From: Bacilli bacterium
GTDB taxonomy: Bacteria; Bacillota_I; Bacilli_A; RF39; UBA660
Length of the DNA: 64,000 nucleotides
NCBI GenBank assembly: GCA_017484125.1
Contig: JAFUTV010000011.1
Span: 14,681-78,680, forward strand
Reading direction: 5' to 3'
The notes under the pieces were generated by a model. That model was given only the letters and a program-made list of their open reading frames with translations. It was not told where the DNA came from and ran no database searches. Of this stretch, positions 10,258-51,622 are shown in pieces (positions within the stretch are counted from its first letter, which is position 1; every line of letters starts with the position of its first letter). The position numbers were made by a program, and so were the translations under genes.

Positions 10258-10287
10258 AAAATAAAACTTTTCGCAGTTTTATTTTTT
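10258..10287 (+). terminator. Rho-independent terminator after pbpB
   Basis: AAAATAAAACT / AGTTTTATTTT 11-bp stem followed by a T run. Confidence 0.65.
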
Positions 10288-10306
10288 ATTTGTCAATTTA
10301 AATTTA

Positions 10307-10347
10307 AAACATATAAAAAAACGTTGAAACTTTTATATGTTTTTTTT
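10307..10347 (+). terminator. Second terminator-like hairpin (12-13 bp A/T-rich stem + T run)
   Basis: AAAACATATAAAA ... TTTTATATGTTTT followed by Ts. The TTG 10324 start of the ORF track sits in its loop, which argues for a later start of the next gene. Confidence 0.45.
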
Positions 10348-10368
10348 ATAATATATATAGAGAAGAAA

Positions 10369-11991: not shown

Positions 11992-12003
11992 GGGGGCATA
12001 AAA

Positions 12004-12627: not shown

Positions 12628-13832
12628 TGAAGAAAGGACAAATTATTGGTATAAGTATATTTATTGTATTAATATTATTAATTATTGGCATAAAGGCATT
12701 TTCAAGTGACAATGATAACAAAGAAAATGTGAGAGGATTAACAACCATATATGTTGCTACAGGTGGTGGCAAAGAAGACTTCCTTGCTGATGAAGAAGTT
12801 CAAAAAATATTAAAAGATAAATATAAACTTAATGTTATATTTGATACGTGGAGTAATGGTAAAACTGTTAGCCAACCATTAATTAGAGAATATGTAAAAC
12901 TCGGAAATGAATCAATAGTATCTAAAATAGCAGCAGGCGATAAGTCATATACCATAACTTCTTCAGATGTTAGTAAATATGATGCATTATTTACTTCTGA
13001 TCAAAGATTTTATGATTATTATAAACTTTATCCAGATAAATCAAAAAATGAGGCAGATAGATATAGTGTTTTAGGTGGAAGTTTAACATTAAATACGCCA
13101 ATTGTTATATATAGTTGGAATAAAGTAGTTGATGCACTTAAAAAAGAAGGAATTGTAACAGAAAATAATGGTGTTGCTTATATTAGTAATATGAGTAAAC
13201 TAATGAATTATATTTTAGAATGAAAAAAATGGTCTGATATTGGTTTAAAAGAATTATATGGAAAGATTAATATAGCATCAACAGATCCTGTAACATCAAG
13301 TCCAGGAGCAACATATTATGGACTTTTACTATCAATACTAAGTGAAGGACAAGTAACTGATGAAACATTAAGTGAAAATTTAGCAAAATTAAAACAATTT
13401 TATATTAAATCAGGTTATATGAATAATACTCCAGCAGATCTTTTTGAAAGATATTTAAAAACTGGAATGGGTGGACAACCAATGATAGTTGATTATGAAA
13501 AGAGTATTATAGATTTTGCAAATTCAAATCAAGATGGATTTAATCAAGTAAAAGATGAAATAAGGATTTTATATCCATCGCCAACTATTTGGAACAGTCA
13601 TTGCTTCGCATATTTTACAGAAAATGGTAAAAAATTATTTGAAGCATTTGATGATAAGGATATACAACAAATTGCCTGGTCTAAGTATGGATTTAGAACA
13701 GGTATTACTGGAGGAGATTATGATGTATCATCTATTGGAATTGGTGTTCCTCAAACAATAACAAGTACGGTTACAAGTTTAAAAATGGATACTTATAACA
13801 AATTAATTGAATATTTAGGAAATGGAGAGTAG
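12627..13832 (+). pseudogene. Substrate-binding-like protein gene interrupted by a single in-frame TGA (13221-13223)
   Basis: ORFs 12627-13223 and 13419-13832 share a frame (offset 792 nt), and 13224-13418 is open in that frame. The product is a paralogue of the N-terminal half of the upstream vWA protein. Confidence 0.7.
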
Positions 13833-13838
13833 GAAAAT

Positions 13839-14984
13839 ATGAAAGAAATGGAAATTAAGTTAGAAAGCAAAAAAGCAGAAAAAAATGTAGAAAGCTTAGC
13901 ACAAGATGCAACAAGTAAAATTACTGATGAAGAAATTGAAGAGTCATTAAACTATGATTTATTGTCAGCTGATGAAAAGAAAGCAATAGATGAATTTGTT
14001 GAAAAAATAGATGTATTTGATTCAACACAAGTTCTTCAATTTGGTGCAGCATCTCAAAGCAAAATATCAGAATTTTCTGATTCAGTTTTAGAGGATGTAA
14101 AAACAAAAGGAACTGGTGTTACAGGAGATTTACTAGCTGATTTAGTAGCTCAAATAAAATCATTTGATTCATCAGTTGGTCAAGAAAAGAAAGGCTTAAT
14201 GAAATTATTTTATAATGCTAAAAAAGAAATTGATAGAATAATTGCTAAGTATTCTAAAATTGAAAAGAATATAGATTTTATTGAAAAAGATTTAGAAAAA
14301 GATAAAATCCAAATGTTAAAAGATATTGCAATATTTGATACAATGTATGAAAAAAATTTAGACTATTTTAAAGAAATATCATTATACATTATTGCAGGTG
14401 AAAAGAAATTAGAAGAATTGAAAACAAAAACATTACCTGAACTTCAAAAGAAAGCAGAAAAATCTAAGGATCAACTTGATGTTCAAAAAGTTAATGATAT
14501 GGAAAATACAATTAATAGATTTGAAAAGAAATTATATGATTTAAAAACTACAAGAGTTATTTCTATTCAAATGGCACCACAAATTAGATTACTTCAAAAT
14601 AATGAGGCAGAACTTGTTGAAAGAATTCAAAGTTCGATTACAAATACTATTCCACTATGGAAAAATCAAATGGTTCTTGCACTTGGTATAAATAATGCTA
14701 AACAAGCACTTAAAACACAACAAGCAGTTACTAATTTAACAAATGATATGTTAAAGAAAAATAGTGAAACTTTAAAACAAGGATCTATAGAAATTGCTAG
14801 AGAATCTGAAAGAGCAATTGTTGATATTGAAACATTAAAGAAAACGAATGCAGATATTATAGAAACTTTAGATCAAGTTCTTGAAATTCATAAGAATGGT
14901 AGAATTCAAAGACAAGAAGCTGAAAAGGAACTTCAAAATATAGAAAAAGAATTAAAAGCAAAAATGTTAGAAATTAAAATGTAA
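13839..14984 (+). CDS. telA: TelA/YceH-family toxic anion resistance protein
   Basis: IDVFDSTQVLQFGAASQSKISEFSD, a long coiled-coil body and a TelA-like length of 381 aa. Confidence 0.85.
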   Translation: MKEMEIKLESKKAEKNVESLAQDATSKITDEEIEESLNYDLLSADEKKAIDEFVEKIDVFDSTQVLQFGAASQSKISEFSDSVLEDVKTKGTGVTGDLLADLVAQIKSFDSSVGQEKKGLMKLFYNAKKEIDRIIAKYSKIEKNIDFIEKDLEKDKIQMLKDIAIFDTMYEKNLDYFKEISLYIIAGEKKLEELKTKTLPELQKKAEKSKDQLDVQKVNDMENTINRFEKKLYDLKTTRVISIQMAPQIRLLQNNEAELVERIQSSITNTIPLWKNQMVLALGINNAKQALKTQQAVTNLTNDMLKKNSETLKQGSIEIARESERAIVDIETLKKTNADIIETLDQVLEIHKNGRIQRQEAEKELQNIEKELKAKMLEIKM

Positions 14985-15030
14985 TAAGAAAGATGTCGAT
15001 TCAATTGACTTCTTTTAGAAAGAAGTATAT

Positions 15031-16605
15031 ATGAACAAAAATTATTTAAATGATATTTATAAAGACTTTTTTGGAAAAGAAATAGATTTAAATCAGGAAG
15101 TTAATGTAAAAATAGATAATAATAAACAAATTAAAATTGATGAAGAAATAGAAAATTTATTAGTTAGCGATGAATCTAAAGAATTATTAAAAAAAATAAT
15201 TTTATATATTAAAGAATATAAAGATGACAATTATTTAAGCTTTAATTTAATTGTTGAATCTGATAATAAAGAAACTAAGGATAGTATAAGAAATATTATA
15301 AAAAATGTTATAGATAATTATGATTATATTGAAAATAATAATCAAATAATAATATCTTTTTATGAATTAGATGATATAAATAAACTTAAAGAAATATTTG
15401 AAAAAAATTCACTTATTATTTTAAAGGATATAAAGGCTTTAGAGTTAAAAGATGATAACTATAAAAGAGTATTTGTTCATTTATTAGAAGAATATTCACT
15501 TAATAAAAACATTATTATTATTGAAGGATTAAAAGAAGAAATAAATTATATATTTGAATTAAATAATTTATTGGAAGAAAAGTATTTTCCATTTAAAATT
15601 ATTGGAAAAAATCCTGATGTATTAGATATCTATCAAGAAATATTAAATATAACTAAATCTACTGATGAAGAATTTAATGTAAAAATACTGGATTATATTT
15701 CTAAAACATTTAATGATTCTAAAGTTGATTATCCAACTTATCGTGATAATTTATGTAGAGAGATAATGTTTAATCACGATATTCCTAAATTAGAAGTTAG
15801 TAAATCTCTTGACGAAATATTTGCAGAATTAAATGAATTGGTAGGATTAGATAATGTAAAAAAGACATTGCATGAATTAGTTGATTTAATATCATTAAAA
15901 GACAAAGCAGATTATTTAAAAATTAATAATGTTAATTTACATATGGTATTTTTAGGTAATCCAGGGACAGGAAAAACTACTGTAGCACGAATAATAGCTG
16001 ATATTTTATATAATTTAAAGTATATTAAACAAAATAAATTAATTGAAGTATCTAATAAAGATTTAGTTGCTGAATATGTAGGGCAAACATCACCTAAAAC
16101 AATGGCAGTAATAGAAAGGGCAATGGGTGGAGTATTATTTATTGATGAAGCATATGCCTTAGCTAGTAAAAATACAAATAATTCATTTAATGAAGAAGCA
16201 ATAGCTACACTAATTAAAGCAATGGAAGACTACCGTGATGATTTAGTTGTTATTTTTGCTGGTTATACAAAAGAAATGCAAGATTTCCTAGAATCAAATT
16301 CTGGCATAGTTTCAAGAATTGGTTATACATTAGAATTTAATGATTATACAAGTAATGAATTAATTCAAATATTTAATAATATGATGAAAAAATCTGGATT
16401 TATTGTAAAAGAAGATGCAATAGATAAATTAAGAAAAATAATAGATGATTATAAAAATAAACCAAACTTTGGTAATGCTAGATTTATAAGAAATGTCTAT
16501 GAAAAAACAGTTATAAAACATGCAGCTAATACTAAAGATAAAAAAAGAAAAGATGTTTTAAAAACTATCACTAAAGAAGATATTAGTATAGAAAATATTA
16601 AATAG
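15031..16605 (+). CDS. SpoVK/CbbX-type AAA+ ATPase with a roughly 260-aa unrecognised N-terminal extension
   Basis: Walker A GNPGTGKTTVARIIA, Walker B VLFIDEAYAL, DDLVVIFAGY and NARFIRNVYE are typical of the SpoVK subfamily. Confidence 0.8.
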   Translation: MNKNYLNDIYKDFFGKEIDLNQEVNVKIDNNKQIKIDEEIENLLVSDESKELLKKIILYIKEYKDDNYLSFNLIVESDNKETKDSIRNIIKNVIDNYDYIENNNQIIISFYELDDINKLKEIFEKNSLIILKDIKALELKDDNYKRVFVHLLEEYSLNKNIIIIEGLKEEINYIFELNNLLEEKYFPFKIIGKNPDVLDIYQEILNITKSTDEEFNVKILDYISKTFNDSKVDYPTYRDNLCREIMFNHDIPKLEVSKSLDEIFAELNELVGLDNVKKTLHELVDLISLKDKADYLKINNVNLHMVFLGNPGTGKTTVARIIADILYNLKYIKQNKLIEVSNKDLVAEYVGQTSPKTMAVIERAMGGVLFIDEAYALASKNTNNSFNEEAIATLIKAMEDYRDDLVVIFAGYTKEMQDFLESNSGIVSRIGYTLEFNDYTSNELIQIFNNMMKKSGFIVKEDAIDKLRKIIDDYKNKPNFGNARFIRNVYEKTVIKHAANTKDKKRKDVLKTITKEDISIENIK

Positions 16606-16623
16606 GAAAGGATTTGATAAATT

Positions 16624-17277
16624 ATGGATAATAAAATTTATAGTAAAGTATTCGGTTGGCTTTTTGTAGGCTTGATGATTGTTTTTTTAGGAGGATATTT
16701 AACTCAGTCATTTTTGCTAAGTCATTTAGAATTGGCAAAGACATTATATTCGGGAATTGGTTTTTGGATAATTATTATTGTTGAACTTGCACTGGCATTT
16801 ATATTAAGCTTAAGAATAAGAAAAATGAATAGTTTAACAGCTAAGATATTGTATATTTTATATTGTATAGTAACTGGTTTTACATTTTCATCAATATTTA
16901 TAATGTTTCAATTAAAATCAATAATATTTGTTTTCTTAATAACAGCTGTTATTTTTGGTATATTTGCAATTATAGGAAGTAAATTAAATGTTGACTTATC
17001 AAAATTTGGATTATACTTGTTTGTTGCATTAATAGGAATAATTATAGTATCTATAATTAATATATTTTTACATAATAGTACACTAGATATTATTTTGTCT
17101 ATTGTATCTATATTAGTATTTACATTATATATTGGATATGATATTAAAATAATTAAAGAAATGGCAAATACCGATATTAATGAAGATAATTTAGCAATTT
17201 ATGGTGCATTTCAATTACTACTTGACTTCATTAATATATTTATTCGTTTATTAGAATTATTTGGAGATAATAAATAA
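16624..17277 (+). CDS. Bax inhibitor-1/YccA (YetJ-like) family membrane protein
   Basis: Seven predicted TM segments and a C-terminal YGAFQLLLDFINIFIRLLELFG motif. Confidence 0.85.
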   Translation: MDNKIYSKVFGWLFVGLMIVFLGGYLTQSFLLSHLELAKTLYSGIGFWIIIIVELALAFILSLRIRKMNSLTAKILYILYCIVTGFTFSSIFIMFQLKSIIFVFLITAVIFGIFAIIGSKLNVDLSKFGLYLFVALIGIIIVSIINIFLHNSTLDIILSIVSILVFTLYIGYDIKIIKEMANTDINEDNLAIYGAFQLLLDFINIFIRLLELFGDNK

Positions 17278-23015: not shown

Positions 23016-24473
23016 ATGGGAGTTATTTTTACATTTTTAATGGGCTTATTTATGGCACTTGAACCTATTACTGATAATGACTGGTTTTGGCATTATGTTA
23101 TAGGTAATATAATAGATGTTTCTCATACCATCCCAAAATCAGAAATGTTTTCCTGGTTTGGAAATTATTCGTGGACTGCCCATGAATGGTTAACTGAATT
23201 TGTTATGTATAAACTAGGTCCTGTCGGAGACTTAGTAATAATGTTAGTTATATTTTTGCTACTTTATATTTTAATGGCTAAAATGCTAAAAGTTAAATTA
23301 AAAAAAATATTTGATTTTAAATTATGTTATTTACTTTTAATGACAGTATTTTTTAAAGTAACAGGTCCTCGTCCATATATATTAAGTTTACTTATGATGG
23401 CTTACTTAGTTTATGTATTATTTAATTATTTGGATGATAAAAAACATTTTGATAAATTGATATATACTATTCCAATACTTCAAATAGTGTGGGTAAATTT
23501 TCATGGTGGTTCATCATCTCTTGCTTATATATTTATAATTGGTGTATTACTATGTGATATCTTCTTAAAAATATTTAAATTCGATGAAGAAAGATGGACT
23601 TCATTTAAATTAAGTAAAAAGCAAACAAAAACATTAGTAATAGTTTTAGTATTAACCTTATTAGCTACTTGTTTAAATCCATTTGGATATACAATGCTTG
23701 CTTATCCATTTACTAATATGGCTGATCAAAATATGATTGAATATATAGTAGAATGGCAATCAGCAAGTTTCCATGGTATGTTTGGTATATATATATTTAT
23801 AATTGTAGCTTTTCCATTAATTAATTTAATATTGCAACATAAAAAAATGAAATTACATGAAATAGCATTTCAATTATTATTACTATTTATGTGTATGAGA
23901 AGTCAAAGATTTATTGGAATGTATGGAATATATTCAACATGGACATTAGGTAAGTATTTCTTTGTTAGCGATGATATGTACAAATATTTAAAAAATCCAT
24001 TTAAAAAAGTGGAAAAATTGATTTTAATTTGTTTTTGCATTGTATTAGTTGGAGTTACTGCCGTAGTTGGATACAAGCAAATTAATTCATTTAGAAATCA
24101 AGGATTAATTGATAATGATGGATTTTATAGTGATGAGGCAATTAGGAAAATTATTGAATTAAAACCTAAGAGAATGTATAATGATTATTCTCAAGGTGGA
24201 TATTTACTTTATAAACTAAATGAATTTAATGCATTATCTGATATTAAAATATTTGCATATGGCTTAGGTGATGTTTTTTCTAAAGATGTGTTACCAGATG
24301 CAAGAAATTTAGAAAATCTTGATACTAATCCAAGAGAAATAATTGAAAAATATAATTTTGATGTAATTCTTACAACAGTTAAACATCCTATGCATTATTT
24401 CTTAGAAGAAATGGATGATTACAGTTTATATTATAGTGATAAAATGTGCTTTATTTATGTAAAAAATATTTAA
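23016..24473 (+). CDS. Polytopic membrane protein, probable GT-C-type glycosyltransferase partner of the GT2 enzyme
   Basis: About 10-12 TM helices followed by a soluble C-terminal domain. It is adjacent to a GtrB/CsbB-like gene, analogous to csbB-yfhO or gtrB-gtrC. No diagnostic motif was recognised. Confidence 0.4.
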   Translation: MGVIFTFLMGLFMALEPITDNDWFWHYVIGNIIDVSHTIPKSEMFSWFGNYSWTAHEWLTEFVMYKLGPVGDLVIMLVIFLLLYILMAKMLKVKLKKIFDFKLCYLLLMTVFFKVTGPRPYILSLLMMAYLVYVLFNYLDDKKHFDKLIYTIPILQIVWVNFHGGSSSLAYIFIIGVLLCDIFLKIFKFDEERWTSFKLSKKQTKTLVIVLVLTLLATCLNPFGYTMLAYPFTNMADQNMIEYIVEWQSASFHGMFGIYIFIIVAFPLINLILQHKKMKLHEIAFQLLLLFMCMRSQRFIGMYGIYSTWTLGKYFFVSDDMYKYLKNPFKKVEKLILICFCIVLVGVTAVVGYKQINSFRNQGLIDNDGFYSDEAIRKIIELKPKRMYNDYSQGGYLLYKLNEFNALSDIKIFAYGLGDVFSKDVLPDARNLENLDTNPREIIEKYNFDVILTTVKHPMHYFLEEMDDYSLYYSDKMCFIYVKNI

Positions 24474-24498
24474 GATAAGTTTTAATAACTTATCTTTT
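24472..24498 (+). terminator. Rho-independent terminator
   Basis: AAGATAAGTT / AACTTATCTT 10-bp stem followed by Ts. Confidence 0.65.
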
Positions 24499-24547: not shown

Positions 24548-25045
24548 ATGAAAAAAATAATTATTTTTGGTATAATTGGTGTTTTACTTATCTATGGATT
24601 TGTTTTTTATTATAAATATGTATATGTTCCAACAGGACAAGAATTTGATGTTAAATTTAGTAATCTTAAAGAAGGTGAAGTTAAAGGCCTTGTTGACGTT
24701 GAAAAAGTTGAATTAACTGATCATGGATTATACACTAGATCTAAATTTATGAAATCCGGAGATTCATTTACATATACTTTTGATGTTACTAATGATGGAA
24801 CAATAAATGCTGAACTTAAGGCAGAACCAATAAAAATGATGCTTGATCAATATTTTAAAAGTCATATTGTTTATGAAATAACGTATGCTGATGGCTCAAG
24901 AATTTCAAAAGGTGATATGTTAAATGTTGGAGACGTAAAAACATTTAAAGTAACAATAACTTATAAAAGGTCAGCTGACATGGCAACACAAGATAGCCAA
25001 TTTTATGAAAGTAATATTTACTTATTATATTTACAAAAAAGATAG
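24548..25045 (+). CDS. N-terminally anchored secreted protein of unknown function, first gene of the pilin-like operon
   Basis: AGGTGA RBS before ATG 24548. One TM helix, then a beta-rich domain (SFTYTFDVTNDGTINAEL, FKVTITYKR). Confidence 0.6.
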   Translation: MKKIIIFGIIGVLLIYGFVFYYKYVYVPTGQEFDVKFSNLKEGEVKGLVDVEKVELTDHGLYTRSKFMKSGDSFTYTFDVTNDGTINAELKAEPIKMMLDQYFKSHIVYEITYADGSRISKGDMLNVGDVKTFKVTITYKRSADMATQDSQFYESNIYLLYLQKR

Positions 25046-25059
25046 AAGGGAAAATAATT

Positions 25060-25503
25060 ATGAAAAAGAATATTATAATTATTATTTTATCAATCATCTT
25101 ATTAGTATTGATTATATTAACATTTACAATCAAATATGAAAGTATTTGTGAAGAAAAAGAAAATGAATATATTTGCACTGGTACAAGAAATATATTTGAT
25201 GAAGATAATAATATAATAGATAAGCAAGATGTAAAAAATATTATCCAATATGATAATACAGGACAAGTAACACATTATTATACAGGATATATAAATCATT
25301 ATTCATCACCATCAGATTGTGATAAAGATGTAGAATATATGAAAAAAAATGGTTTTACTTTTTCTAAAGAAGATAAAACTAGTATATTCATTTATGATGA
25401 TAATATAAATAACGAAGAAGAGGATTACAAGATTTGGTTTAAAGATTTAATTGAAGATGTAAATAATGAAGAATATAATATAACATGTAAAAAGAGTAAA
25501 TGA
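25060..25503 (+). CDS. Small membrane-anchored Cys-containing protein (paralogue A)
   Basis: MKKNIIIIIL TM anchor. Shares IIQYDNTGQVTHYYTGYINHY, TSIFIY and KIWFKDLIED with the next ORF. Confidence 0.6.
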   Translation: MKKNIIIIILSIILLVLIILTFTIKYESICEEKENEYICTGTRNIFDEDNNIIDKQDVKNIIQYDNTGQVTHYYTGYINHYSSPSDCDKDVEYMKKNGFTFSKEDKTSIFIYDDNINNEEEDYKIWFKDLIEDVNNEEYNITCKKSK

Positions 25504-25526
25504 TATAGCTAGGGTGGGAGATTATA

Positions 25527-25961
25527 ATGAAAAAAAACATTATTATAATAATATTAATAGTTTTAATACTAATATTTGGATTTGTTTTGATATTTAAAAG
25601 TTTAAATAAAAATAATAATTGTCTAACTAATCAAAGCAAAACAAGTAAAGTTATATGTACAAAAGATGTTGTAAAAAATGAAAATATAACATTTGATAAA
25701 TATAAAGAAATAATAGAATTTAATGAAGAAGGAACAATAATTAATTATTATTCAGGAATAATTGTTCATTTTGAAAGTAAAGATGAGTATGATAAAGCAA
25801 TTGAGAGCATAAAAAATCAAAATGTCTCTTTTACTGAGGAAGAAAATTTAACTATATTTATTTATACTAATTTGTATGAATATGATGATACTTATAAAAA
25901 TGTATGGTATAAACATATTCTTGATAATAAAAAAATAGAAAATTATAATTGTGTAGAGTAA
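25527..25961 (+). CDS. Small membrane-anchored Cys-containing protein (paralogue B)
   Basis: Same architecture as 25060-25503 (IIEFNEEGTIINYYSGIIVHF, LTIFIY, NVWYKHILDN), so this is a tandem duplicate. Confidence 0.6.
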   Translation: MKKNIIIIILIVLILIFGFVLIFKSLNKNNNCLTNQSKTSKVICTKDVVKNENITFDKYKEIIEFNEEGTIINYYSGIIVHFESKDEYDKAIESIKNQNVSFTEEENLTIFIYTNLYEYDDTYKNVWYKHILDNKKIENYNCVE

Positions 25962-25971
25962 TATCAAAAGA

Positions 25972-28900
25972 ATGGATAGTGGTCTTATGAAAAAAAAGTC
26001 TGGATTTACATTAACAGAATTAATAGCAGTAATAGTTATATTAGGATTACTTGTAGCAATAGCAGTTCCAGTATATTTTAATGTAACAAAAAAAGCTAAA
26101 GAAAATGAATATGAGGCAAAAAAAGCATACATTGCAACTGTTGCAACAAGATATGCAGAAGAAAATAATGTTAACATAACTAATGCTTTTTCAGTTGCTA
26201 GATTAATTGCAAGTGGTTATATGTCTGCAGAAGACTATATTGATAGTGATTCTTCTCAAATTCCATTTATTGCTAATCCAACAAATGCAAATGATAATTT
26301 AGCATGTCATACTATATCAATAACAGTTGATAATTATGAATATAGTGCTACTGTAAATGATGATTCTGATTGTTCATTAATATCTGGAGATGAAGATGCA
26401 AAAGATTTTGGAATTAAAGCGTATAAATTAGAAGATAATAGTATTAAATCTGAAATATCATTTGAAAATTCAAATACTTTAAATTGGGTAAATACAGATG
26501 TAATTTTATTAATAAAACCAAATTATTCTAATATTTTGGAATCAATAATATCATACAATGGTGAAAGTAAAGAAATTAACTTTAATGATTCAAGTATTTG
26601 TAGTTCAGTGAAAATGGATTGTCCAAATGTTGTTATTTTAAGAGCAACAGCAATTTTAAAAACAGAAGTTTCAATATCTCTTAAACTAACTCAAAATGAT
26701 AATGAAACGAAATTATTAACAACACGAGTTGAAGTAAGAATTGATAAGGAAGTACCAACTGTAAATTTTGAAAAATATGATGGATGGACAGATGCTAATA
26801 AAGATACATTAATTTACGTATCTGATGGTAGTGGTTCTGGTCCAAAAGGCGTTTATGTTACTGATAATCAAGTTATGCCAAACAAAGAATGTACTGAAGC
26901 TAATAGATGTTATAAAATAGACGATAATAAAATTTCTGGAGCAGTTGCTGTACCAAATTTAACAGATAAACAATATTATTTATGGGGAATTGATAATGTT
27001 GATAATATATCCAGTGAATATGTTTTATTTGATGTTAATAATGTTGATAATGTTGCTCCAACATGTACAGTAGAGGGTGAAAATACCACCTGGAAAACTG
27101 GAAGTATAACTATAAAATGGGGATGTCGTGACTCAGAATCTGGTTGTAAAACTGGATATGATGGTTCATCAAAAGTTTATACTGAAACAGCTAAGCAAAT
27201 AACAATTCCATCATATGTAATAAAAGATAATGTTGGTAATGAAACAAATTGTCCTTCAAAAAATGTTAATGCATATATTGATAATGATCCACCAACATGT
27301 ACTAATACTCCAAGTTTTTCTGATTGGACTAGAGAAGATAGAACAATCACATGGGGATGTAGTGATAATGGTTCAGGCTGTGATCCAAGTTCTGGTGGTG
27401 GAAGCAAAATAATAAATACTACTATGGAAAAATATACTATTCCATCATATGTAATAAAAGATAATGTTGGAAATGAAACAAATTGTCCAAGCGTTACAAT
27501 AGATGTCAAAGTTGAAAAAAAGCCTTTAGATACAACCCCACCAACGTGTACACATACTTCAAATTTTTCTAATTGGACTAATCAAAATAGAACAATTACG
27601 TGGGGATGTAGTGATTCTGATTCGGGTTGTGATTCAAGATATAGTGGTGGAAGTAAAATAATAAACACTTCTATGGAAAAATATACTATCCCATCATATG
27701 AAATAAGAGATAATGATGGTAATATTACTCGTTGTCCAGCAGTTTCAGTTGATGTAAAGGTTGATAAAAATCCACCAACATGTGGAAATGCCACAGGAGG
27801 AAAAACATATTGGACAAAAAATCAATCAGTAAGTATCGGTGTAAATTGTAGCGATACAGGAAGTGGTTGTCAATATTCTAATTTTACAAGTTCAATATCT
27901 GGAAATGGAACAACACAATATACAGGAATAACAATAAGAGATAATGCTGGAAATACCACAACATGTTATAATACATATAATAAATACATAGATACTATTG
28001 CACCATCATGTGGTAGTGCTACAGGAGGAAAAACATACTGGACAAAAGATCAATCAGTGAGTGTTGGTGTAAATTGCAGTGATACAGGAAGTGGTTGTAA
28101 ATATTCTAATTTTACAAGTTCAATATCTGGTCATGGAAGAACATCATATATAGGAATAACAATAAAAGATAATGTTGGAAATACAGCTACATGTTATAAT
28201 ACCTATAATAAATATATAGATACAGTGCCACCATCTTGTACGACAACAGGTGGAGAAACTAATGCAACATCAAATTTAACAATTAGAGGAACTTGTAGTG
28301 ATTCAGATTCTGGTTGTTTATATTCTTCAGTAGCAACAACTGTTTATACATCTACATCATACAATCCTGGATGGTCATCGCCGGGAACTGTTTATGATAA
28401 TGTTAATAATTATACAACATGTCCAAGTACTTATTATTCATTTAAAGAATCCTGTGCATATACTGCAGGTAAATCTTGGTCAATAACAATAGATAATAAT
28501 TTTGTTATTCCTTGTAGTGGATCATATACAATCAAACTTTGGGGTGGTGCTGGTGGTTCTGATGATGAATCTCCAGGTGGAAAAGGAGCGTATATAAAAG
28601 TAACTGCTAAATTGAAAAAAAATTCCGTTGCGGCATTTATAATTGGGGGTGAAGGTGGATCATCAACATGGCAAGAAAAAATGAATGCTGGTGGTCATAA
28701 TGGTGGTGGAAACGCATATTGGTCTGGAGCTGGTGGTGGTCGTACCGAAGTCAGTATTGATGGTACCCTAGCAGCAGCCGCTGCTGGTGGAGGCGGTGGA
28801 ACATTTCATCTAGGACAAGCTGGTGGAGGAAGAGTTTCTACCAAGTCAGGAAATACAACTTCATCATGGAAAGGTGGTTCTACCAATACATACGTAGCTT

Positions 28901-29214
28901 ATGACTGTAATGCCGATGCTGGTGGAGGCGGTGCTGGATACAAACGTGGTGGAAAAAGAGGTATTTATGAGGAATGTAGTGGTGCAAGTACTGGATATGG
29001 CGGAATAAGTGGATATGAATCATCATTAGTTACAAAAGTTGAAGAAAAAGCAAGCAATAAAAGTGGAAATGGTAAAGCAGAAATAATACTTGATTCAATT
29101 GATTCATCATCAATAGGTGAAGAAATAATAATTGAGGATGATGGAAATGGCGAGGAAATAATAATTGAGGATGATGGAAATGGCGAGGAAATATTATTTG
29201 AGGATGCTGGATAA
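25972..29214 (+). CDS. Giant type IV pilin-like protein: prepilin-type N-terminus, six four-Cys modules, glycine-rich (ALK/LTK-type) domain and an acidic tandem-repeat tail
   Basis: KKKSG|FTLTELIAVIVILGLLVAIAVPVY is a class III (N-methylation) signal with Glu at +5. The repeats and glycine-rich domain are described in the findings. The start could be 25972 or ATG 25987. Confidence 0.85.
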   Translation: MDSGLMKKKSGFTLTELIAVIVILGLLVAIAVPVYFNVTKKAKENEYEAKKAYIATVATRYAEENNVNITNAFSVARLIASGYMSAEDYIDSDSSQIPFIANPTNANDNLACHTISITVDNYEYSATVNDDSDCSLISGDEDAKDFGIKAYKLEDNSIKSEISFENSNTLNWVNTDVILLIKPNYSNILESIISYNGESKEINFNDSSICSSVKMDCPNVVILRATAILKTEVSISLKLTQNDNETKLLTTRVEVRIDKEVPTVNFEKYDGWTDANKDTLIYVSDGSGSGPKGVYVTDNQVMPNKECTEANRCYKIDDNKISGAVAVPNLTDKQYYLWGIDNVDNISSEYVLFDVNNVDNVAPTCTVEGENTTWKTGSITIKWGCRDSESGCKTGYDGSSKVYTETAKQITIPSYVIKDNVGNETNCPSKNVNAYIDNDPPTCTNTPSFSDWTREDRTITWGCSDNGSGCDPSSGGGSKIINTTMEKYTIPSYVIKDNVGNETNCPSVTIDVKVEKKPLDTTPPTCTHTSNFSNWTNQNRTITWGCSDSDSGCDSRYSGGSKIINTSMEKYTIPSYEIRDNDGNITRCPAVSVDVKVDKNPPTCGNATGGKTYWTKNQSVSIGVNCSDTGSGCQYSNFTSSISGNGTTQYTGITIRDNAGNTTTCYNTYNKYIDTIAPSCGSATGGKTYWTKDQSVSVGVNCSDTGSGCKYSNFTSSISGHGRTSYIGITIKDNVGNTATCYNTYNKYIDTVPPSCTTTGGETNATSNLTIRGTCSDSDSGCLYSSVATTVYTSTSYNPGWSSPGTVYDNVNNYTTCPSTYYSFKESCAYTAGKSWSITIDNNFVIPCSGSYTIKLWGGAGGSDDESPGGKGAYIKVTAKLKKNSVAAFIIGGEGGSSTWQEKMNAGGHNGGGNAYWSGAGGGRTEVSIDGTLAAAAAGGGGGTFHLGQAGGGRVSTKSGNTTSSWKGGSTNTYVAYDCNADAGGGGAGYKRGGKRGIYEECSGASTGYGGISGYESSLVTKVEEKASNKSGNGKAEIILDSIDSSSIGEEIIIEDDGNGEEIIIEDDGNGEEILFEDAG
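27055..28455 (+). repeat. Six tandem coding repeats of about 76-83 codons (module boundaries 27055, 27289, 27538, 27772, 28000, 28228)
   Basis: Each module follows (A/P)P(T/S)C ... C(S/R)D(S/T/N)xSGC ... D(N)xGN ... C. By my hand alignment, modules 4 and 5 are identical at 62 of 76 residues. Confidence 0.85.
29116..29211 (+). repeat. Three copies of a 33-nt direct repeat encoding GEEIIIEDDGN (last copy diverged)
   Basis: Units start at ggt 29116, ggc 29149 and ggc 29182. The second and third begin with the identical ggcgaggaaata. Confidence 0.9.
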
Positions 29215-29240
29215 AAAAATAGACTTTTGTCTATTTTTTT
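29213..29240. terminator. Bidirectional terminator between the pilin-like gene and convergent yigZ
   Basis: AAAAATAGAC-TTTT-GTCTATTTTT, flanked by an A run and a T run. Confidence 0.75.
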
Positions 29241-29586
29241 ATTTTACCACATTATTTGCAGCACTAGAGTAAGCTCTTAATAAACCGCCAGCACCAAGTT
29301 TTATTCCGCCAAAATATCTTACAACAACAATTAAACAATTATTTAATTGTTGTTTTTCAATTATATTATATATTGGTGATCCTGCTGTTCCATTAGGTTC
29401 TTTATCATCACTTTTTTTAACAATATTATCTATTTTATATGCATATGGTAAATGACGTGCTTTTTTATGTTCTTTTTTTAATTGATCTAATATTTCTTTT
29501 ATTTCATTTATATTAAAAACTTCATAATAATAAGCAATAAATCTACTTTTTTTAATTTGCTCTTCATATGTATTTATAAGATTCAT
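29239..29586 (-). CDS. yigZ: YigZ/IMPACT-family protein, N-terminal (UPF0029) domain only
   Basis: KSRFIAYYYEV, HLPYAY, DDKEPNGTAGSPI and VVVRYFGGIKLGAGGL motifs. At 115 aa it lacks the C-terminal domain found in longer family members. Confidence 0.75.
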   Translation of the reverse strand: MNLINTYEEQIKKSRFIAYYYEVFNINEIKEILDQLKKEHKKARHLPYAYKIDNIVKKSDDKEPNGTAGSPIYNIIEKQQLNNCLIVVVRYFGGIKLGAGGLLRAYSSAANNVVK

Positions 29587-36138: not shown

Positions 36139-36792
36139 ATGAAAAGTGTTATTCCTTATGAAAAGGATATAAAATTTGATACTAAAATTGCAGAGATAAC
36201 TTCAATATCATTAGAGCATGAAGAACAATTAAATAATGGTGAAATTGATGGAACTTTTATCATATCAGGAGATTATAAGGCACATTTAATTAGTGTTAAT
36301 AAAGAAAATTTTACATATAAAATACCTTTTACTATTGAATTAACTGATAATATTGATAAAGATTCAGTTATAGTAGATATCAATGATTTTACATACGATA
36401 TTAAAGATAATGATACTTTAACTGTTAAAATAGAATTATTATTTTCTTATGAAGAAATAATAAAAGAAGATATTATTGAAAATAAAGAAGAAGAAAGTGT
36501 TGATGATAATATTTTGAAAGAACAAAGAAATGAAGAATTAGACAAAGAAATTGATGCAATAATAAATAACAATGAAGAAAAAAATGTTGAAAGTTCTATA
36601 ATTGATAATTCTATAACTACTACTGATAATACGTATGTAACTTATCATGTATATATTGTTACTAAAGAAGATACAATTGATTTAATTTGTCAAAAGTTTA
36701 AAGTATCTAAAGAATTACTTCATGAATATAATGATTTTGATGAAATAAAAATTGGAGATAAACTATTAATACCTATTGAAGAAGATGAATAA
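36139..36792 (+). CDS. spoVID: SpoVID/SipL-like spore coat morphogenetic protein (N-terminal DUF3794-like region + C-terminal LysM)
   Basis: IPYEKDIKFDTKIAEITSISLEHE...GEIDGTFIISGDYK, an acidic middle region, and a LysM at the C-terminus (YHVYIVTKEDTIDLICQKFKVSKELLHEYND...IKIGDKLLIP). It is followed by a ysxE-like gene, as in B. subtilis. Confidence 0.65.
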   Translation: MKSVIPYEKDIKFDTKIAEITSISLEHEEQLNNGEIDGTFIISGDYKAHLISVNKENFTYKIPFTIELTDNIDKDSVIVDINDFTYDIKDNDTLTVKIELLFSYEEIIKEDIIENKEEESVDDNILKEQRNEELDKEIDAIINNNEEKNVESSIIDNSITTTDNTYVTYHVYIVTKEDTIDLICQKFKVSKELLHEYNDFDEIKIGDKLLIPIEEDE

Positions 36793-37681
36793 GTCTTTAG
36801 AAACAATAAAGGAAATATATAAACCATATCGCTATACCTTAAAGGGAAGTGCAACTATATTAGAAACCACCAGTGTTAATTATGTAATAAAAGAAAGTAA
36901 TAATAATTTAAGAGAATTATTTTCTTATCTTAAATCTAGAAGTTTTGACAATTATCCAGAAATAGTAGATGATTCTAGAAAAGGAATTGATGTTTTCAAA
37001 TACATTGATGATATATCTTATCCAAATGAACAAAGAGCTAATGATTTAATAAATTTAATAGCAAAACTACACTATAAAACATCTTTTTATAAAGATGTTA
37101 CAGAAGATAATTTTAAAGAAGTCTATGATAATATAAAAAGTAATATTGATTATTTAAATGAAATATATGATAAGTATTACGACGATTTTTTTAAATCTAT
37201 ATATTTATCACCATCAAAATATTTATTTATGAATAATTATAGTAAAATAAAAGCTAATTTAAATTTTTGCCAGAATGAATTAGATAATTGGTACTCATTA
37301 GTTAAGAAATTAAAAAAAACTAGAGTTGCGGTTATTCATAATAATTTATCACTTGATCATTTTTTAAAAGATACTAAAGATTATTTGATTAGCTGGAATA
37401 AATCTACAATAGATATACCTATAATTGATATAATAAAGTTTTATAAAAAAGAATATTTTAATATAAATTTTGATAATTTAATAAAAAATTATTTAAATAT
37501 ATACTCCCTATCTGATGATGAAAAAAAATTATTTTTTGTTCTTATTTCTCTTCCAAATGAAATTAAATTTGATGAAAATGAATTTTTATCTTCCATAAAA
37601 GTAAGAGAAAATTTAGATTATATTTTTAAAACTGAAAATTTAATAAGGCCATATTATCTTGAAAATCAAAAAGAAGAATAG
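36785..37681 (+). CDS. ysxE: CotS/YsxE-family kinase-fold spore coat protein, catalytic residues apparently replaced
   Basis: Position directly after spoVID. The kinase-like region reads VIHNNLSLDHFL where the family has HxDxxxxN. Confidence 0.5.
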   Translation: MNKSLETIKEIYKPYRYTLKGSATILETTSVNYVIKESNNNLRELFSYLKSRSFDNYPEIVDDSRKGIDVFKYIDDISYPNEQRANDLINLIAKLHYKTSFYKDVTEDNFKEVYDNIKSNIDYLNEIYDKYYDDFFKSIYLSPSKYLFMNNYSKIKANLNFCQNELDNWYSLVKKLKKTRVAVIHNNLSLDHFLKDTKDYLISWNKSTIDIPIIDIIKFYKKEYFNINFDNLIKNYLNIYSLSDDEKKLFFVLISLPNEIKFDENEFLSSIKVRENLDYIFKTENLIRPYYLENQKEE

Positions 37682-37825
37682 TGCGATTTCTATAAGTAAA
37701 AAAAATATATGCGTTCTAAATGGTAAAATTAGAGTTATTATAGTTTGATAAAATATTAATATTGCTAAAAAAAATAGACACAAAAAATATATAAATCCTG
37801 GAGTTTTAGGTTTTTTTGGACACAT
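37640..37825 (-). CDS. Possible small two-TM membrane protein (61 aa)
   Basis: AGGTGA RBS 7 nt before ATG 37825 on the minus strand. The product is hydrophobic. It overlaps the ysxE 3' end by 42 nt, and it could be spurious. Confidence 0.3.
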   Translation of the reverse strand: MCPKKPKTPGFIYFLCLFFLAILIFYQTIITLILPFRTHIFFLLIEIALFFFLIFKIIWPY

Positions 37826-37920
37826 AAATTATCACCTATAATATTTTATGTAAATATTAAAAATATTCTTTATCTTTTTATTAATATTTGATATTATTAT
37901 TAGGATAAGAAGGGCAAAAT

Positions 37921-38418
37921 ATGAAAATATTGAATAGATCAATTATTAGATATACAATTTCTTTAATAATATTTATCGGTGTTTTAATTGGATTAACAGT
38001 ATTTATAACTATAAAAATTATTGAAGATAATATTCATAAAACTTATCAAGATAATGGTTTTATAATTGATATTAATCCAAAAATTAATAAAAAATTAGAT
38101 AAACAATTAGATATTGACGGTATTTATTCTCCATTTAATATTATTAATTTAACTAATAATGGTAAAAAAAGAAAATATCAAATAGTATTAACTCCAATAA
38201 ATAATAGTGATGCTAATATAAGAGTATCAGTAAATAATGTATTAATAAGATATTTAAATAATTTTGATAAAGTTGATGATGGCTATTTGTTATATGAAAA
38301 TTATTTAAATGAACATTATAGTATTTCACATCAAATAAGAGTATGGCAATCAATTAATAGTGTAGTGGATAATATTACAGTCAATTTTAATTTAAAAGTA
38401 AATATTTTAGATGAATAA
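37921..38418 (+). CDS. N-terminally anchored secreted protein of unknown function, upstream of a pseudopilin gene
   Basis: One TM helix and then a beta-rich domain (FNIINLTNNGKKRKYQIVLTP), the same architecture as ORF 24548-25045. Confidence 0.55.
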   Translation: MKILNRSIIRYTISLIIFIGVLIGLTVFITIKIIEDNIHKTYQDNGFIIDINPKINKKLDKQLDIDGIYSPFNIINLTNNGKKRKYQIVLTPINNSDANIRVSVNNVLIRYLNNFDKVDDGYLLYENYLNEHYSISHQIRVWQSINSVVDNITVNFNLKVNILDE

Positions 38419-38495
38419 ATATACCATTCATCTTTTTTTTATGGTATTATTATAATAGATAGATATAAAAAGTAAGATGATAAAGGGTGATAGTC

Positions 38496-39053
38496 ATGAA
38501 TAAAGTAAGTAAAGGAACTACTTTAGTAGAAATAATGGTTAGTGTCATGTTAATTGCTGTAGTACTAGTTTTTATATTTAATATTTTAGTTGATTTAAAA
38601 GCTGAAAAAGAACTATCTACTAAAAGAAGCGAAGATGCTATTGAAAGAGCTTCATATACTAGGATAATTCAAAATGACTTTATTAATTATGGCTTAAAAA
38701 AAATTAGTAGTTGTACAAGTGGATTAATTTGTTATGATTTTGAATACAACAATGACTTAAAAAAAAGATTAGTAATATTTGATACTTATGTTGTTTATGA
38801 TGATGAAAAGTGGGTAATATCAACTGGAACTTATAAGAAAAATGCCGCTAAATTTTGTTATACAAATGTATTTGATAATAGTAAAATAACTACAGAAATG
38901 AAAAATGATAGTACAGTTAAGAATTACCATGTTTTAAAATTGATAGTACCAGTAACAAAAAATATTTCATCCAATAGAAAATATGATATAGAATTAACTA
39001 ATATTAGTGAAAGTCCAGTTGAAATTTCTGGCATAACAATAAAATGTGATTAA
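38496..39053 (+). CDS. Prepilin-type N-terminal cleavage/methylation domain protein (pseudopilin)
   Basis: MNKVSKG|TTLVEIMVSVMLIAVVLVFIF has Gly at -1, Glu at +5 and a hydrophobic helix. AAGGGTGA RBS precedes ATG 38496. Confidence 0.7.
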   Translation: MNKVSKGTTLVEIMVSVMLIAVVLVFIFNILVDLKAEKELSTKRSEDAIERASYTRIIQNDFINYGLKKISSCTSGLICYDFEYNNDLKKRLVIFDTYVVYDDEKWVISTGTYKKNAAKFCYTNVFDNSKITTEMKNDSTVKNYHVLKLIVPVTKNISSNRKYDIELTNISESPVEISGITIKCD

Positions 39054-39878
39054 AAGAATTAAAGCAATTATTACCTGCATTATTCTTCCATTTAAAAAAT
39101 ATTTGTAATCAATATTAGAATTTTGTAAAATACTGTTTACTTGCGTATGAATAGAAAGACCACCAAATGAAATGTATATTACTGATAAAATTAATTTATA
39201 TAAAGTATTTGAATTACTATTAACTAAATAATTTAATCCTTGTGTAACTTCAATTATTCCAATAAAATTACTAAATATTTTTGGTAATAAACTAATAATA
39301 ATATTAAATATAATAATGGTTATATAAATATTTATCATTACATTACATGATTCTTTAATACTGGTAATTAATATATCATTAAAAGATTTTGACTTTATTT
39401 TAATAATATTATTTTTTTTGATTGGATTTATAATAAAAATAATAACATTAGTAATTAGCTCAATTACTATTATGGTAATAGCTATATCATTATTAAATAT
39501 CGTTTTTAGCATTGTATATAAAAATAAGGGACTCTGAAAAAAAGATGATTTCAAATAAATATTAGCTTCTTTAATAGTTATTACATTATTCTTTAATAAA
39601 TCTTTTATAGTTATAACATTATTTGGACATCCAGATATAAATGATATTAATAATATATAAATATAAATATTATTTTTAAATATAGATGAAATATAATAAG
39701 CAAAATTATAATTAATTAATATTTTGGATATTATAAATATAGGTAATAAAAAAGGTAATACTTTACTTAAAAATAGATATGAAGAAGATATAGTAGTGAT
39801 ACTAATTATATTATTATATTTAAATAAGAGGTATATTATCATAAATAATATTGTAATAATTAATATATTTTTTTTCAT
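38994..39878 (-). CDS. ylbJ: YlbJ-like sporulation integral membrane protein (nucleoside-recognition/Gate-domain type)
   Basis: Polytopic membrane protein with LSKVLPFLLPIFIISKIL near the N-terminus, divergent from ylbL as in B. subtilis. Confidence 0.5.
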   Translation of the reverse strand: MKKNILIITILFMIIYLLFKYNNIISITTISSSYLFLSKVLPFLLPIFIISKILINYNFAYYISSIFKNNIYIYILLISFISGCPNNVITIKDLLKNNVITIKEANIYLKSSFFQSPLFLYTMLKTIFNNDIAITIIVIELITNVIIFIINPIKKNNIIKIKSKSFNDILITSIKESCNVMINIYITIIIFNIIISLLPKIFSNFIGIIEVTQGLNYLVNSNSNTLYKLILSVIYISFGGLSIHTQVNSILQNSNIDYKYFLNGRIMQVIIALILLITFYCYARNFNWTFTNIS

Positions 39879-49527: not shown

Positions 49528-49552
49528 TATTAATAATAAGGGATTGGTTAGT

Positions 49553-51611: not shown

Positions 51612-51622
51612 AGGGGAATAAT

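Follow-up and report, generated by a model that had tools for sequence, protein, structure and literature searches.

A giant modular type IV pilin-like protein with an Ig-like stalk and an ALK/LTK-type glycine-rich head in uncultured gut Bacilli

A very long protein that starts as a type IV pilin and ends in a glycine-rich domain raises the question of whether it is a pilus subunit or a surface fibre that only borrows the pilin anchor. Such a protein is encoded in the 64-kb stretch of DNA analysed here (the window), where the program-made list shows an open reading frame at 25972-29214 (forward strand). The sequence-only reading of this locus gave it 1,080 aa; the frame exists, but its best start is the ATG at 25987, used by gene callers and database copies, which gives a gene at 25987-29214 and a protein of 1,075 aa (P0230), the frame from 25972 being the longest ORF. 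The database copies P0001 and P0230 both begin MKKKSG. Upstream of the gene there is a GGATAGTG motif, which is common to the paralogues of the related locus L003. The gene had been described as closing a terminator-bounded 4.7-kb unit with three small anchored proteins. Folding hairpins are found at both ends and make these boundaries plausible, although a consensus terminator scanner shows no match at either of them. The downstream one (29215-29243) is an AT-rich hairpin with A- and T-run flanks, likely a bidirectional intrinsic terminator (dG -15.2 and -14.4 kcal/mol, z = -8.0 and -7.2 for the two strands), and the plausible left boundary (24472-24496, +) is a 10-bp hairpin with a U-rich tract 3' of the upstream gene, the region around which, taken whole, is not significant against shuffles (z = -0.6). 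The first small protein (24548-25045, +) belongs to a CARDB/camelysin-like beta-sandwich family (profile match E = 4e-8; jackhmmer 1.5e-39), shows weak DUF11/B_ant_repeat matches, and has family members near the giant pilins of loci L009 and L004. The other two (25060-25961, +; 147 and 144 aa) are paralogous, N-terminally anchored proteins (pairwise E ~1e-19) with no relatives in other family loci. The three small genes were therefore rejected as a conserved accessory set, since only the first recurs near other family members, and the 4.7-kb unit as a whole is species-specific. A prophage or mobile-element origin was also rejected, because the flanks contain housekeeping genes (dcw-cluster, uvrC, rnf).

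The N-terminus shows a class III (prepilin) leader, MKKKSG (25987-26004, +), with cleavage predicted after Gly, and the sequence MKKKSG|FTLTELIAVIVILGLLVAIAVPVY combines a short basic leader, Gly at -1, a hydrophobic run and Glu at +5. Both Pfam N_methyl (PF07963; 26.6 bits, cut-off 21.2) and TIGR02532 (25.0 bits, cut-off 16.3) exceed their cut-offs, which supports the prepilin signal proposed before any database search. From the ATG at 25987 the leader has six residues, as in most homologues; among 73 homologues its length is mostly four to seven. F1 and E5 are conserved in all 73 homologues having the motif, and G14, P22 and Y24 are the majority residues. These five residues lie in the long pilin alpha1 helix at the mature N-terminus (26005-26166, +), modelled by AF2 as a 52-residue helix (model residues 9-60; model pLDDT 88.6). 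The helix is followed by a small beta-sheet pilin head (26167-26376, +), defined by the AF2 strands (model residues 67-127) and by the cysteine map, which places a Cys112/Cys134 pair in it. The prediction thus shows the lollipop fold of pilins, an alpha1 of about 50 residues on an antiparallel beta-sheet head. The Foldseek list for the N-terminal model consists mostly of matches to Ig stalks, with no separate match for the head, and all PDB sequence matches of the protein are to pilin N-termini. The protein shows no match to the Flp_Fap (PF04964) or TadE (PF07811) signatures and was not retrieved by iterative searches that started from genuine Flp and TadE proteins in related Bacilli; by signature, it does not appear to be a Tad/Flp (type IVc) pilin.

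The region of about 200 aa that follows had been called unrecognised. Its two domains indeed have no Pfam match, but AF2 shows two Ig-like beta-sandwiches (26413-27036, +), supported by Foldseek and by the family consensus, which form a conserved base of the family; the second contains the motif RIDKEvPT...SDGSGSG...YY...D.v.N. Downstream of the base there are six four-cysteine Ig-like stalk modules of 76-83 aa each (27049-28449, +). Their cysteines are 365/385/392/427, 443/463/470/505 and 526/546/553/588 in modules 1-3, and 604/626/633/665, 680/702/709/741 and 756/775/782/817 in modules 4-6. In the alignment of the six, P, C, C, D, SGC, DN, N and C are invariant, and the DNA under them shows tandem repeats with periods of 249 and 228, and the six modules noticed in the sequence-only reading are confirmed. 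Module 1 is a beta-sandwich in the AF2 model. The module shows no Pfam family above threshold, the best being a sub-threshold DUF7743, and no sequence relative in the PDB; by structure, the Foldseek matches of the stalk are the tandem Ig-like stalks of adhesins (MpIBP, FdeC, GhpA).

The distal head (28453-29106, +) is an ALK/LTK-type glycine-rich domain (GRD), with a TNF-like beta core and a polyglycine-II region. The earlier assignment to this type holds: Pfam ALK_LTK_GRD (PF12810) matches residues 849-1023 with 48.7 bits (cut-off 24.5; E = 1.3e-12) over model positions 7-220 of 243, a profile of the domain retrieves the GRDs of SCD-2, LTK and ALK from the PDB (E 7e-11 to 1e-8), and in the AF2 model (pLDDT 90.9, pTM 0.89) the first 21 Foldseek matches in the PDB are all ALK/LTK/SCD-2 GRDs (E 1e-8 to 1e-5), the next having E 0.07. 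The ALK/LTK fold is thereby confirmed by Pfam, by profile against solved structures and by predicted fold. Long high-confidence stretches of the model have neither DSSP helix nor strand, as polyglycine II would give. Relatives were collected by an exhaustive HMMER search, a word-indexed search having given one match, swamped by poly-Gly words. Among the 149 closest, 21 have prepilin signals, 12 a zinc ribbon with a transmembrane segment, and others Sec signals; the fold is also common on phage fibre and virion proteins. No description of a bacterial GRD function was found in the literature, and we know of no ligand for any of them. The protein ends in an acidic tandem tail (29122-29211, +), GEEIIIEDDGN x2.7, already noticed in the sequence-only reading and recovered by TRF as a 33-bp unit with 94% matches. 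Its copy number is polymorphic between assemblies, P0001 being one unit shorter, and its low pLDDT is read as disorder. The C-terminus is this repeat (...GEEILFEDAG) and not a sortase anchor. Elsewhere in the window, ORF 4317-6347 encodes a sortase substrate, with a Sec signal, NPETG, a transmembrane segment and KKHSK.

The family of this protein comprises at least 79 clusters at 90% identity, with lengths of 603–1,738 aa, and is found in uncultured gut Bacilli of low G+C. Its members have the pilin module and the base in common and carry swappable heads (GRD, BspA-LRR, InlB-repeat, VWA). Tandem paralogues are 97.9% identical over 2,238 nt and split into different heads beyond that stretch. 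There are many giant-pilin paralogues per genome, and related genomes also encode normal-sized N_methyl pilins. In related loci the family genes are orphans amid housekeeping genes, and in a Faecalibacillus locus (L037) an orphan pilin lies amid glycogen and tRNA-synthetase genes. A scan of contigs with the pilin N-terminal motif gave pilins of many phyla, the species of the window being absent among the matches listed.

We see about an even chance that the protein is an adhesin in the form of a giant modular type IV pilin. A tip or low-abundance pilus subunit displaying a binding head is most likely, the main rival being a pilin-anchored fibre that does not polymerise. A giant minor pilin, a tip adhesin and a pilin-anchored fibre had been proposed at the outset, and all three readings are still viable. 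The predicted architecture consists of leader, alpha1, pilin head, a rigid stalk of two base and six disulfide-type modules, and the distal GRD. A prepilin peptidase would cut after Gly11, and the hydrophobic alpha1N would keep the protein in the membrane until it is taken up by a type IV filament machine, probably encoded elsewhere in the genome. Through its pilin module the protein would then enter the filament, in low abundance and at the tip or close to it, and the filament and the stalk, of about 30 nm, would bring the GRD through the Gram-positive wall, where it may bind a host, dietary-particle or other-cell ligand. Alternative specificities would come from paralogues in which the same base carries another head (BspA-LRR, InlB-repeat, VWA, extra GRDs). 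Glu5 serves subunit docking in filaments and is missing only from the capping subunit (Pelicic 2023, PMC10191384). Its strict retention in the family therefore argues for polymerisation over mere anchoring, and its presence here indicates that the protein is not the terminal cap. The adhesin-like stalk, the confirmed GRD fold, the prepilin signals on GRD relatives, the normal-sized pilins of related genomes, the presence of ComEC in a syntenic contig and the tandem paralogues that diverge into different heads also support the favoured reading. It is weakened by the absence of PilB/ComGA, PilC/ComGB and prepilin peptidase (PilD): searches seeded with E. coli HofB, HofC, GspE, GspF and GspO (L037 gave no seeds) found none of them in the 64 kb of the window or at distances of up to 10 kb from the 53 related low-G+C loci; for the window this bears out what had been noted before. 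Of 30 loci from other taxa, 17 do have PilB/PilC/PilD-type genes. A membrane protein of 224 aa that recurs near the lineage pilins was rejected as a prepilin peptidase, as it shows no match to GspO or to the PilD of locus L016; presumably it is of YetF/DUF421 type, which its sequence resembles. Also counting against the favoured reading, we know of no experimentally studied precedent for a pilin of about 115 kDa with an eight-domain stalk, and a stalk of about the thickness of the Gram-positive wall would allow function without a filament.

Type IV filament machinery does occur in the window: a Flp-less type IVc core missed earlier, with genes for TadZ (ParA-like), the TadA/CpaF ATPase, TadB and TadC, is located at 49544-53289 (+). 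TadA matches Pfam T2SSE and TIGR03819 and has relatives annotated as CpaF, and the 326-aa and 229-aa proteins match TadB and TadC of locus L089 (5e-24 and 1e-30), which carry T2SSF. It is doubtful, though conceivable, that the giant pilin is a genuine filament subunit whose machine is this core and not PilB/ComGA, a type IVc motor being paired with type IVa-like (GFTLxE) pilins. The core is the sole type IV filament machinery seen in the window, about 20 kb downstream of the giant pilin gene, and no Flp or TadE was found near it. Its synteny is kept in relatives (49-100% ATPase identity), always without Flp or TadE, and more distant Bacilli retain both beside the core, with Tad pilins in the same register (KG|QALVE) as KSG|FTLTE. 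In addition, sigG lies directly 3' of the core in this lineage, the three giant pilins of L003 are about 7-10 kb from sigG, and the family of the first small protein is found directly upstream of the Tad loci L089 and L092. However, the link is unproven, as these points are co-occurrence alone: a TadA homologue lies within 10 kb of none of the 53 related pilin loci, an A24/TadV peptidase was found neither in the window nor in related loci, the core, being always next to sigG, might just as well have a role in connection with sporulation, PilB/ComGA may be encoded in another part of the genome, and we know of no precedent for Tad machines assembling N_methyl-type pilins. With the same low probability, the lineage may use the prepilin signal as a general display route for its giant-adhesin repertoire, served by TadZABC near sigG, either as a type IVc motor with type IVa-like pilins or as a bacterial analogue of the archaeal bindosome.

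Less probable than the favoured modular pilin, yet a serious possibility, is a surface fibre that has a pilin anchor but does not polymerise, its class III signal being only a cleavable signal-anchor: alpha1N would stay in the membrane, the eight-domain stalk would cross the peptidoglycan and the GRD would be displayed on the monomer. The orphan genes amid housekeeping genes, with no PilB/PilC/PilD near the 53 related loci, fit this explanation, as do the eight Ig-like domains, which would match the Gram-positive wall in length, and the many paralogues per genome, typical of surface adhesins. The same head is also found on zinc-ribbon proteins with a transmembrane segment and on Sec-signal anchors, and therefore needs no pilus. 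Against a mere anchor are the invariant F1 and E5, a charged residue being unexpected in a pure membrane anchor (role of Glu5: PMC10191384), the G14, P22 and Y24 kept as in filament-forming pilins, and the folded pilin head that AF2 places after the helix. The organism, moreover, already has ordinary anchors, namely the NPETG sortase substrate at 4317-6347 and LspA. Archaeal binding proteins with class III signals (the Sulfolobus bindosome) also depend on a PilB/PilC-like assembly system. Release of the protein, for instance by cleavage or by export in the manner of type II secretion substrates, to act as a soluble or S-layer-like factor is very improbable; the lack of a C-terminal anchor and the disordered acidic tail would allow it, but alpha1N is a strong membrane or filament anchor, secretion-system genes are not nearby, and the anchor-stalk-head architecture is that of a tethered adhesin.

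The giant pilin is among the largest and most elaborate modular pilins seen, and belongs to a sizeable unstudied family in uncultured animal-gut Bacilli; given the size of this family, the display of adhesins through pilins may be one of their main means of colonisation. Discussions of the ALK/LTK glycine-rich fold mostly treat it as a curiosity of metazoan receptors. In bacteria it appears as a common extracellular head, both on pilins and on other anchors, and phage fibre proteins carry it too; this spread is relevant to where the ligand-binding domain of ALK came from and what its ancestral function was. Pilin genes systematically apart from PilB/PilC/PilD, together with a conserved Flp-less Tad core, raise the question of which machine handles them.

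Modular pilins, in which a domain is grafted onto a pilin module, are a published concept (Raynaud et al. 2021, PMC8179133), and a protein with both N_methyl and ALK_LTK_GRD falls within that definition. The architecture is therefore less novel than first claimed: Dataset S1 of that study contains IPR012902-PF12810 (two proteins) and IPR012902-PF12810 x3 (one protein), which are uncharacterised there, and Dataset S2 includes a PilY1 with PF12810, so that the GRD recurs on both known carriers at type IV pilus tips. The giant pilin thus adds to a described class, in which the largest protein singled out has 860 aa and in which Streptococcus sanguinis PilB and PilC are established adhesins, modelled at pilus tips (PMC8179133). 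PilB (pilin with vWA) and PilC (pilin with lectin) share with it the class III signal, the small pilin module, the grafted binding domain, the Gram-positive host and the proposed tip display (PMC8179133; Shahin et al. 2023, PMC9934059). They are bimodular proteins of about 50 kDa encoded inside the pil locus with PilD and assembly genes, whereas the giant pilin has 1,075 aa, eight intervening Ig-like domains and an orphan gene, and is known from its sequence alone. The CofB/TcpB-type minor pilins and GspK also combine a pilin module with extra beta-rich domains and are tip-located and assembly-priming (PMC8179133, PMC10191384); they have one or two extra domains and belong to their own pilus operons, and GspK-type caps are without the Glu5 that the giant pilin retains. 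PilY1/PilC are large modular non-pilin adhesins at type IV pilus tips, docked by a C-terminal beta-propeller (IPR008707), which has no Pfam match in the giant pilin. The GRD (TG) domains of ALK, LTK and SCD-2 (PDB 7lrz, 7nx1, 7lir and others) are of the same Pfam family (query TM-score ~0.5-0.6) and share the PC.G.Y.L..WGxxGG start and the glycine runs; the metazoan domain, of about 300 aa, lies beside an EGF-like module in a receptor tyrosine kinase and binds ALKAL cytokines, whereas the bacterial one, of about 215 aa, sits on the far end of a pilin stalk. Phage proteins with this fold, for example those of Synechococcus and Caulobacter phages (BFVD predicted structures; TM-score up to 0.68, E down to 3.5e-11), likewise carry it as a distal module on long fibrous virion or tail-fibre proteins, but they are viral structural proteins without a pilin anchor, mostly with unannotated functions. 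Finally, the RTX adhesin MpIBP, FdeC and the grappling hook GhpA show the same arrangement of a tandem beta-sandwich stalk with a distal binding region, and differ in their export by T1SS, autotransporter/intimin or T9SS routes, where the giant pilin has a prepilin signal.

The ORF at 25972-29214 on the forward strand is present in the ORF list of the window, as the sequence-only reading had it, and the G+C content of the window is about 24%. In both database copies, and according to gene callers, the giant pilin begins at the second ATG, 25987, which gives a protein of 1,075 aa beginning with MKKKSG/FTLTEL (the slash marks the cleavage position) and a leader of six residues, the commonest length among the homologues. 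The database copy P0230, on a 225,976-bp NCBI/ENA contig, is an exact match. A GGATAGTG motif is located upstream of this ATG and also upstream of two paralogues in a related genome. The giant-pilin unit (24548-29214) starts with three small anchored proteins: the first (24548-25045) belongs to a CARDB/camelysin-like family, and the other two are paralogues of 147 and 144 aa (25060-25961; mutual E about 1e-19), whose relatives were found in none of the other loci compared. The description of this unit as terminator-bounded is plausible because folding gives hairpins at both edges, a 10-bp hairpin, rich in A and T and with a U-tract, directly 3' of the upstream gene at the left and a strong bidirectional hairpin (z = -8) 3' of the giant-pilin stop codon at the right, although a consensus scanner finds no terminators flanking the unit. 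The CARDB/camelysin-like family, an N-terminally anchored beta-sandwich family, is seen in three contexts. Three copies lie directly upstream of the Tad loci of two other genomes (L089, 6513-8417; L092, 6546-8411), one member opens the giant-pilin unit, and LRR_5 proteins near the giant pilins of two further genomes (L009, 15851-16480; L004, 1-2768) have the family's domain at their N-terminus.

The prepilin signal is borne out by profile searches, in which Pfam N_methyl scores 26.6 bits (curated cut-off 21.2) and TIGR02532 is also above its curated threshold. The AlphaFold2 model of residues 6-440 (36 homologues, pLDDT 88.6) shows an N-terminal helix of 52 residues which, together with a small beta-sheet head carrying a Cys pair, forms the pilin 'lollipop', followed by three beta-sandwich domains in succession, the third of which is four-Cys module 1. 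The region of about 200 aa formerly described as unrecognised is without a Pfam match above threshold, but it corresponds to two Ig-like domains because the model shows beta-sandwiches there. Foldseek relates the N-terminal model to Ig-like domains in tandem, among them those in the stalks of the large bacterial adhesins MpIBP, FdeC and GhpA; no Pfam model above threshold and no PDB sequence matches either the base domains or the four-Cys module. The six four-Cys modules lie exactly where they had been placed, between residues 365 and 817, each with four Cys at fixed spacing and with P, C, C, D, SGC, DN, N and C unchanged throughout; in the DNA they correspond to tandem repeats of 249 and 228 bp. 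The GEEIIIEDDGN tail is encoded by 2.7 copies of a 33-bp repeat (29122-29211), and its copy number is polymorphic, since in another assembly the gene lacks one of these units (1,064 versus 1,075 aa). The giant pilin thus consists of a leader, a pilin module, an eight-domain stalk, a glycine-rich domain (GRD) head and a short acidic disordered tail.

The head is solidly established as an ALK-type GRD by three independent tests, namely Pfam, sequence profile and predicted fold. Pfam ALK_LTK_GRD (PF12810) matches residues 849-1023 with 48.7 bits (cut-off 24.5, E = 1.3e-12). The model of the C-terminal 236 residues (18 GRD relatives, pLDDT 90.9, pTM 0.89) retrieves from the PDB 21 top matches which are all ALK, LTK and SCD-2 GRDs (E 1e-8 to 1e-5, TM about 0.5-0.6), the next match having an E of 0.07, and a sequence profile of bacterial GRDs reaches the same structures with E 7e-11 to 1e-8. 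An exhaustive HMMER search gives 151 representatives related to this GRD at E <= 1e-3. Among the 149 other GRD proteins listed, 21 show canonical prepilin signals, 12 have zinc-ribbon anchors and six (P0115, P0125, P0131, P0135, P0147 and P0191) show a pilin-like KGFA(I/L)(S/T)..Y N-terminus without Glu5; the N-terminal patterns place the remainder outside these classes, and several of these show Sec-type signal peptides on inspection. Tip-capping minor pilins characteristically lack Glu5, as those six do. In the 12 zinc-ribbon proteins (P0083, P0086, P0088, P0090, P0094, P0097 and others) a cytoplasmic CxxC...CxxC start replaces the pilin signal and forms a second anchor on which this head recurs. 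In a comparison with predicted viral structures, phage virion, tail-collar and short-tail-fibre proteins commonly show the GRD fold (TM as high as 0.68, E as low as 3.5e-11). Since it recurs on pilins, on other bacterial anchors and on phage fibre proteins, the GRD is a distal extracellular module that is reused widely, in keeping with a binding role, and part of the value of the giant pilin is that it gives the ALK glycine-rich fold a bacterial and phage context. A literature search found no published account of the function of any bacterial GRD.

Database searches show that the giant-pilin family contains at least 79 clusters of proteins with lengths of 603-1,738 aa (median 992), 73 of the 79 with the N-terminus K-K-G/F-T-L-x-E. 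They share the pilin module and a base of roughly 350 residues, after which the number of four-Cys modules varies and the C-terminal heads differ: one to two or more GRD copies, BspA/DUF285 leucine-rich repeats, InlB B-repeats, VWA, TSP1 or Big. The value of the giant pilin lies partly in the size of this family and in its modular logic of shared base, stalk repeats and swappable heads. Related genomes contain several giant pilins in tandem; on the contig L003 three follow one another (684, 1,313 and 1,030 aa), with two 180-aa pilins 9 kb off. The two largest are adjacent genes (10001-17129) whose first 2,238 nt are 97.9% identical and whose first 661 aa are identical, but past the shared part one shows two GRDs and the other a weak Flg_new match. 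A near-identical 5' part followed by unlike heads is the signature of a recent duplication with head replacement. Among the matches listed, full-length relatives in species-representative genomes belong only to low-G+C MAGs of uncultured bacteria, which bear the labels Bacilli, Bacillales, Tenericutes or 'Mycoplasma sp. CAG:956'. Several of the relatives come from bins with a Muribaculaceae label instead. Eight loci (L009, L017, L023, L026, L029, L039, L043 and L075) are labelled 'uncultured Muribaculaceae', yet they show 24-30% G+C and Bacilli-type pilin genes, and these bins are probably mislabelled or contaminated. Going by the sample names, the habitat would be the gut of ruminants and other animals. 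The host is walled and spore-forming, given its PBPs, MraY, FtsW and SigG, and Coat_F, GerA and CotE in relatives. In Faecalibacillus intestinalis (L037, 9959-10654) a 231-aa N_methyl protein lies alone among glycogen-synthesis and tRNA-synthetase genes, so orphan pilins also occur in cultured Erysipelotrichales-type Bacilli.

There is about an even chance that the giant pilin is a true filament subunit. This reading is favoured over a mere anchor because F1 and E5 are invariant in 73 of 73 homologues, and Glu5 docks the subunits of the filament through a salt bridge, being absent only from the capping subunit (PMC10191384). G14, P22 and Y24 are majority residues among the same homologues, and at all five positions the giant pilin agrees with classical type IVa pilins. 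It is also favoured because a folded pilin head comes after the helix in the model, and because the host has ordinary anchoring routes (LspA, and Sec with an NPETG sortase substrate), so that the pilin route is a choice. This substrate, a 676-aa protein (4317-6347, forward strand) with no Pfam family, shows a Sec signal peptide, a C-terminal NPETG, a TM segment and a KKHSK tail; this sortase-type signal makes it a probable surface protein anchored in the wall. As a filament subunit, the giant pilin would, because it is bulky, occupy the tip or its vicinity or be scattered thinly along the filament, as proposed for other modular pilins. A non-polymerised, membrane-anchored fibre is a serious, if rather unlikely, rival, since a stalk of eight Ig-like domains would measure roughly 30 nm, about the thickness of the wall. 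The window contains no prepilin peptidase, PilB/ComGA or PilC/ComGB, which counts against the filament reading, and none was found within 10 kb of the pilin genes in 53 related low-G+C loci among the matches listed, where the recurrent neighbours are housekeeping genes; the same scan in other taxa finds machinery near the pilin genes in 17 of 30 loci among the matches listed.

The sequence-only reading was right that PilB, PilC and PilD are absent from the window, but it overlooked a TadZABC core at 49544-53289, in which a ParA-like gene is accompanied by genes for a CpaF/TadA ATPase and for two membrane proteins. For the ATPase there are matches to T2SSE and to TIGR03819 (128 bits), its relatives being named CpaF in the sources, and the membrane proteins match TadB and TadC (5e-24 and 1e-30) of a bona fide Tad locus with T2SSF domains and TadE. 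Directly downstream is sigG (53338-54114), and this synteny is kept in relatives with 49-100% ATPase identity, including three loci (L087, L088 and L093) with ATPases 49-76% identical; neither in the window nor in these relatives is Flp or TadE found beside the core. More distant Bacilli retain Flp-TadE-TadZABC, and their Tad pilins show the cleavage register KG/QALVE, the same as in the giant pilin. That the Flp-less core serves the orphan GFTLxE pilins seems improbable, the observations, among them the CARDB/camelysin-like family shared by the giant-pilin unit and the Tad loci of L089 and L092, being hints and not evidence; given its tight link to sigG, the core could equally have a sporulation-related role. 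The question of which machine handles these orphan pilins is a further part of the value of the giant pilin. Elsewhere in the window, a cluster at 10324-14984 contains an SBP_bac_11 and VWA protein, a Halogen_Hydrol (XpaC-like) protein, two family-less proteins and TelA, and resembles a toxic-anion-resistance or stress module; four consecutive ORFs at 36776-39878 (301, 165 and 188 aa on the forward strand, 294 aa on the reverse) show no Pfam match.

Modular pilins, in which a functional domain is grafted onto a pilin module, are a published class that comprises over 1,200 proteins in 264 architectures, and the PilB (vWA) and PilC (lectin) of S. sanguinis are demonstrated adhesins modelled at the pilus tip (PMC8179133). 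This catalogue includes IPR012902-PF12810 in two proteins and IPR012902-PF12810 x3 in one, and its parallel PilY1 table a PilY1 with PF12810 (PMC8179133). The pairing of pilin and GRD was therefore already known to exist, although it is uncharacterised; the earlier observation is confirmed and its interpretation partly supported. The largest modular pilin singled out by those authors has 860 aa (PMC8179133), against 1,075 aa here. Since its architecture is already catalogued, the giant pilin is not categorically new, but an extreme new member of the modular-pilin class.
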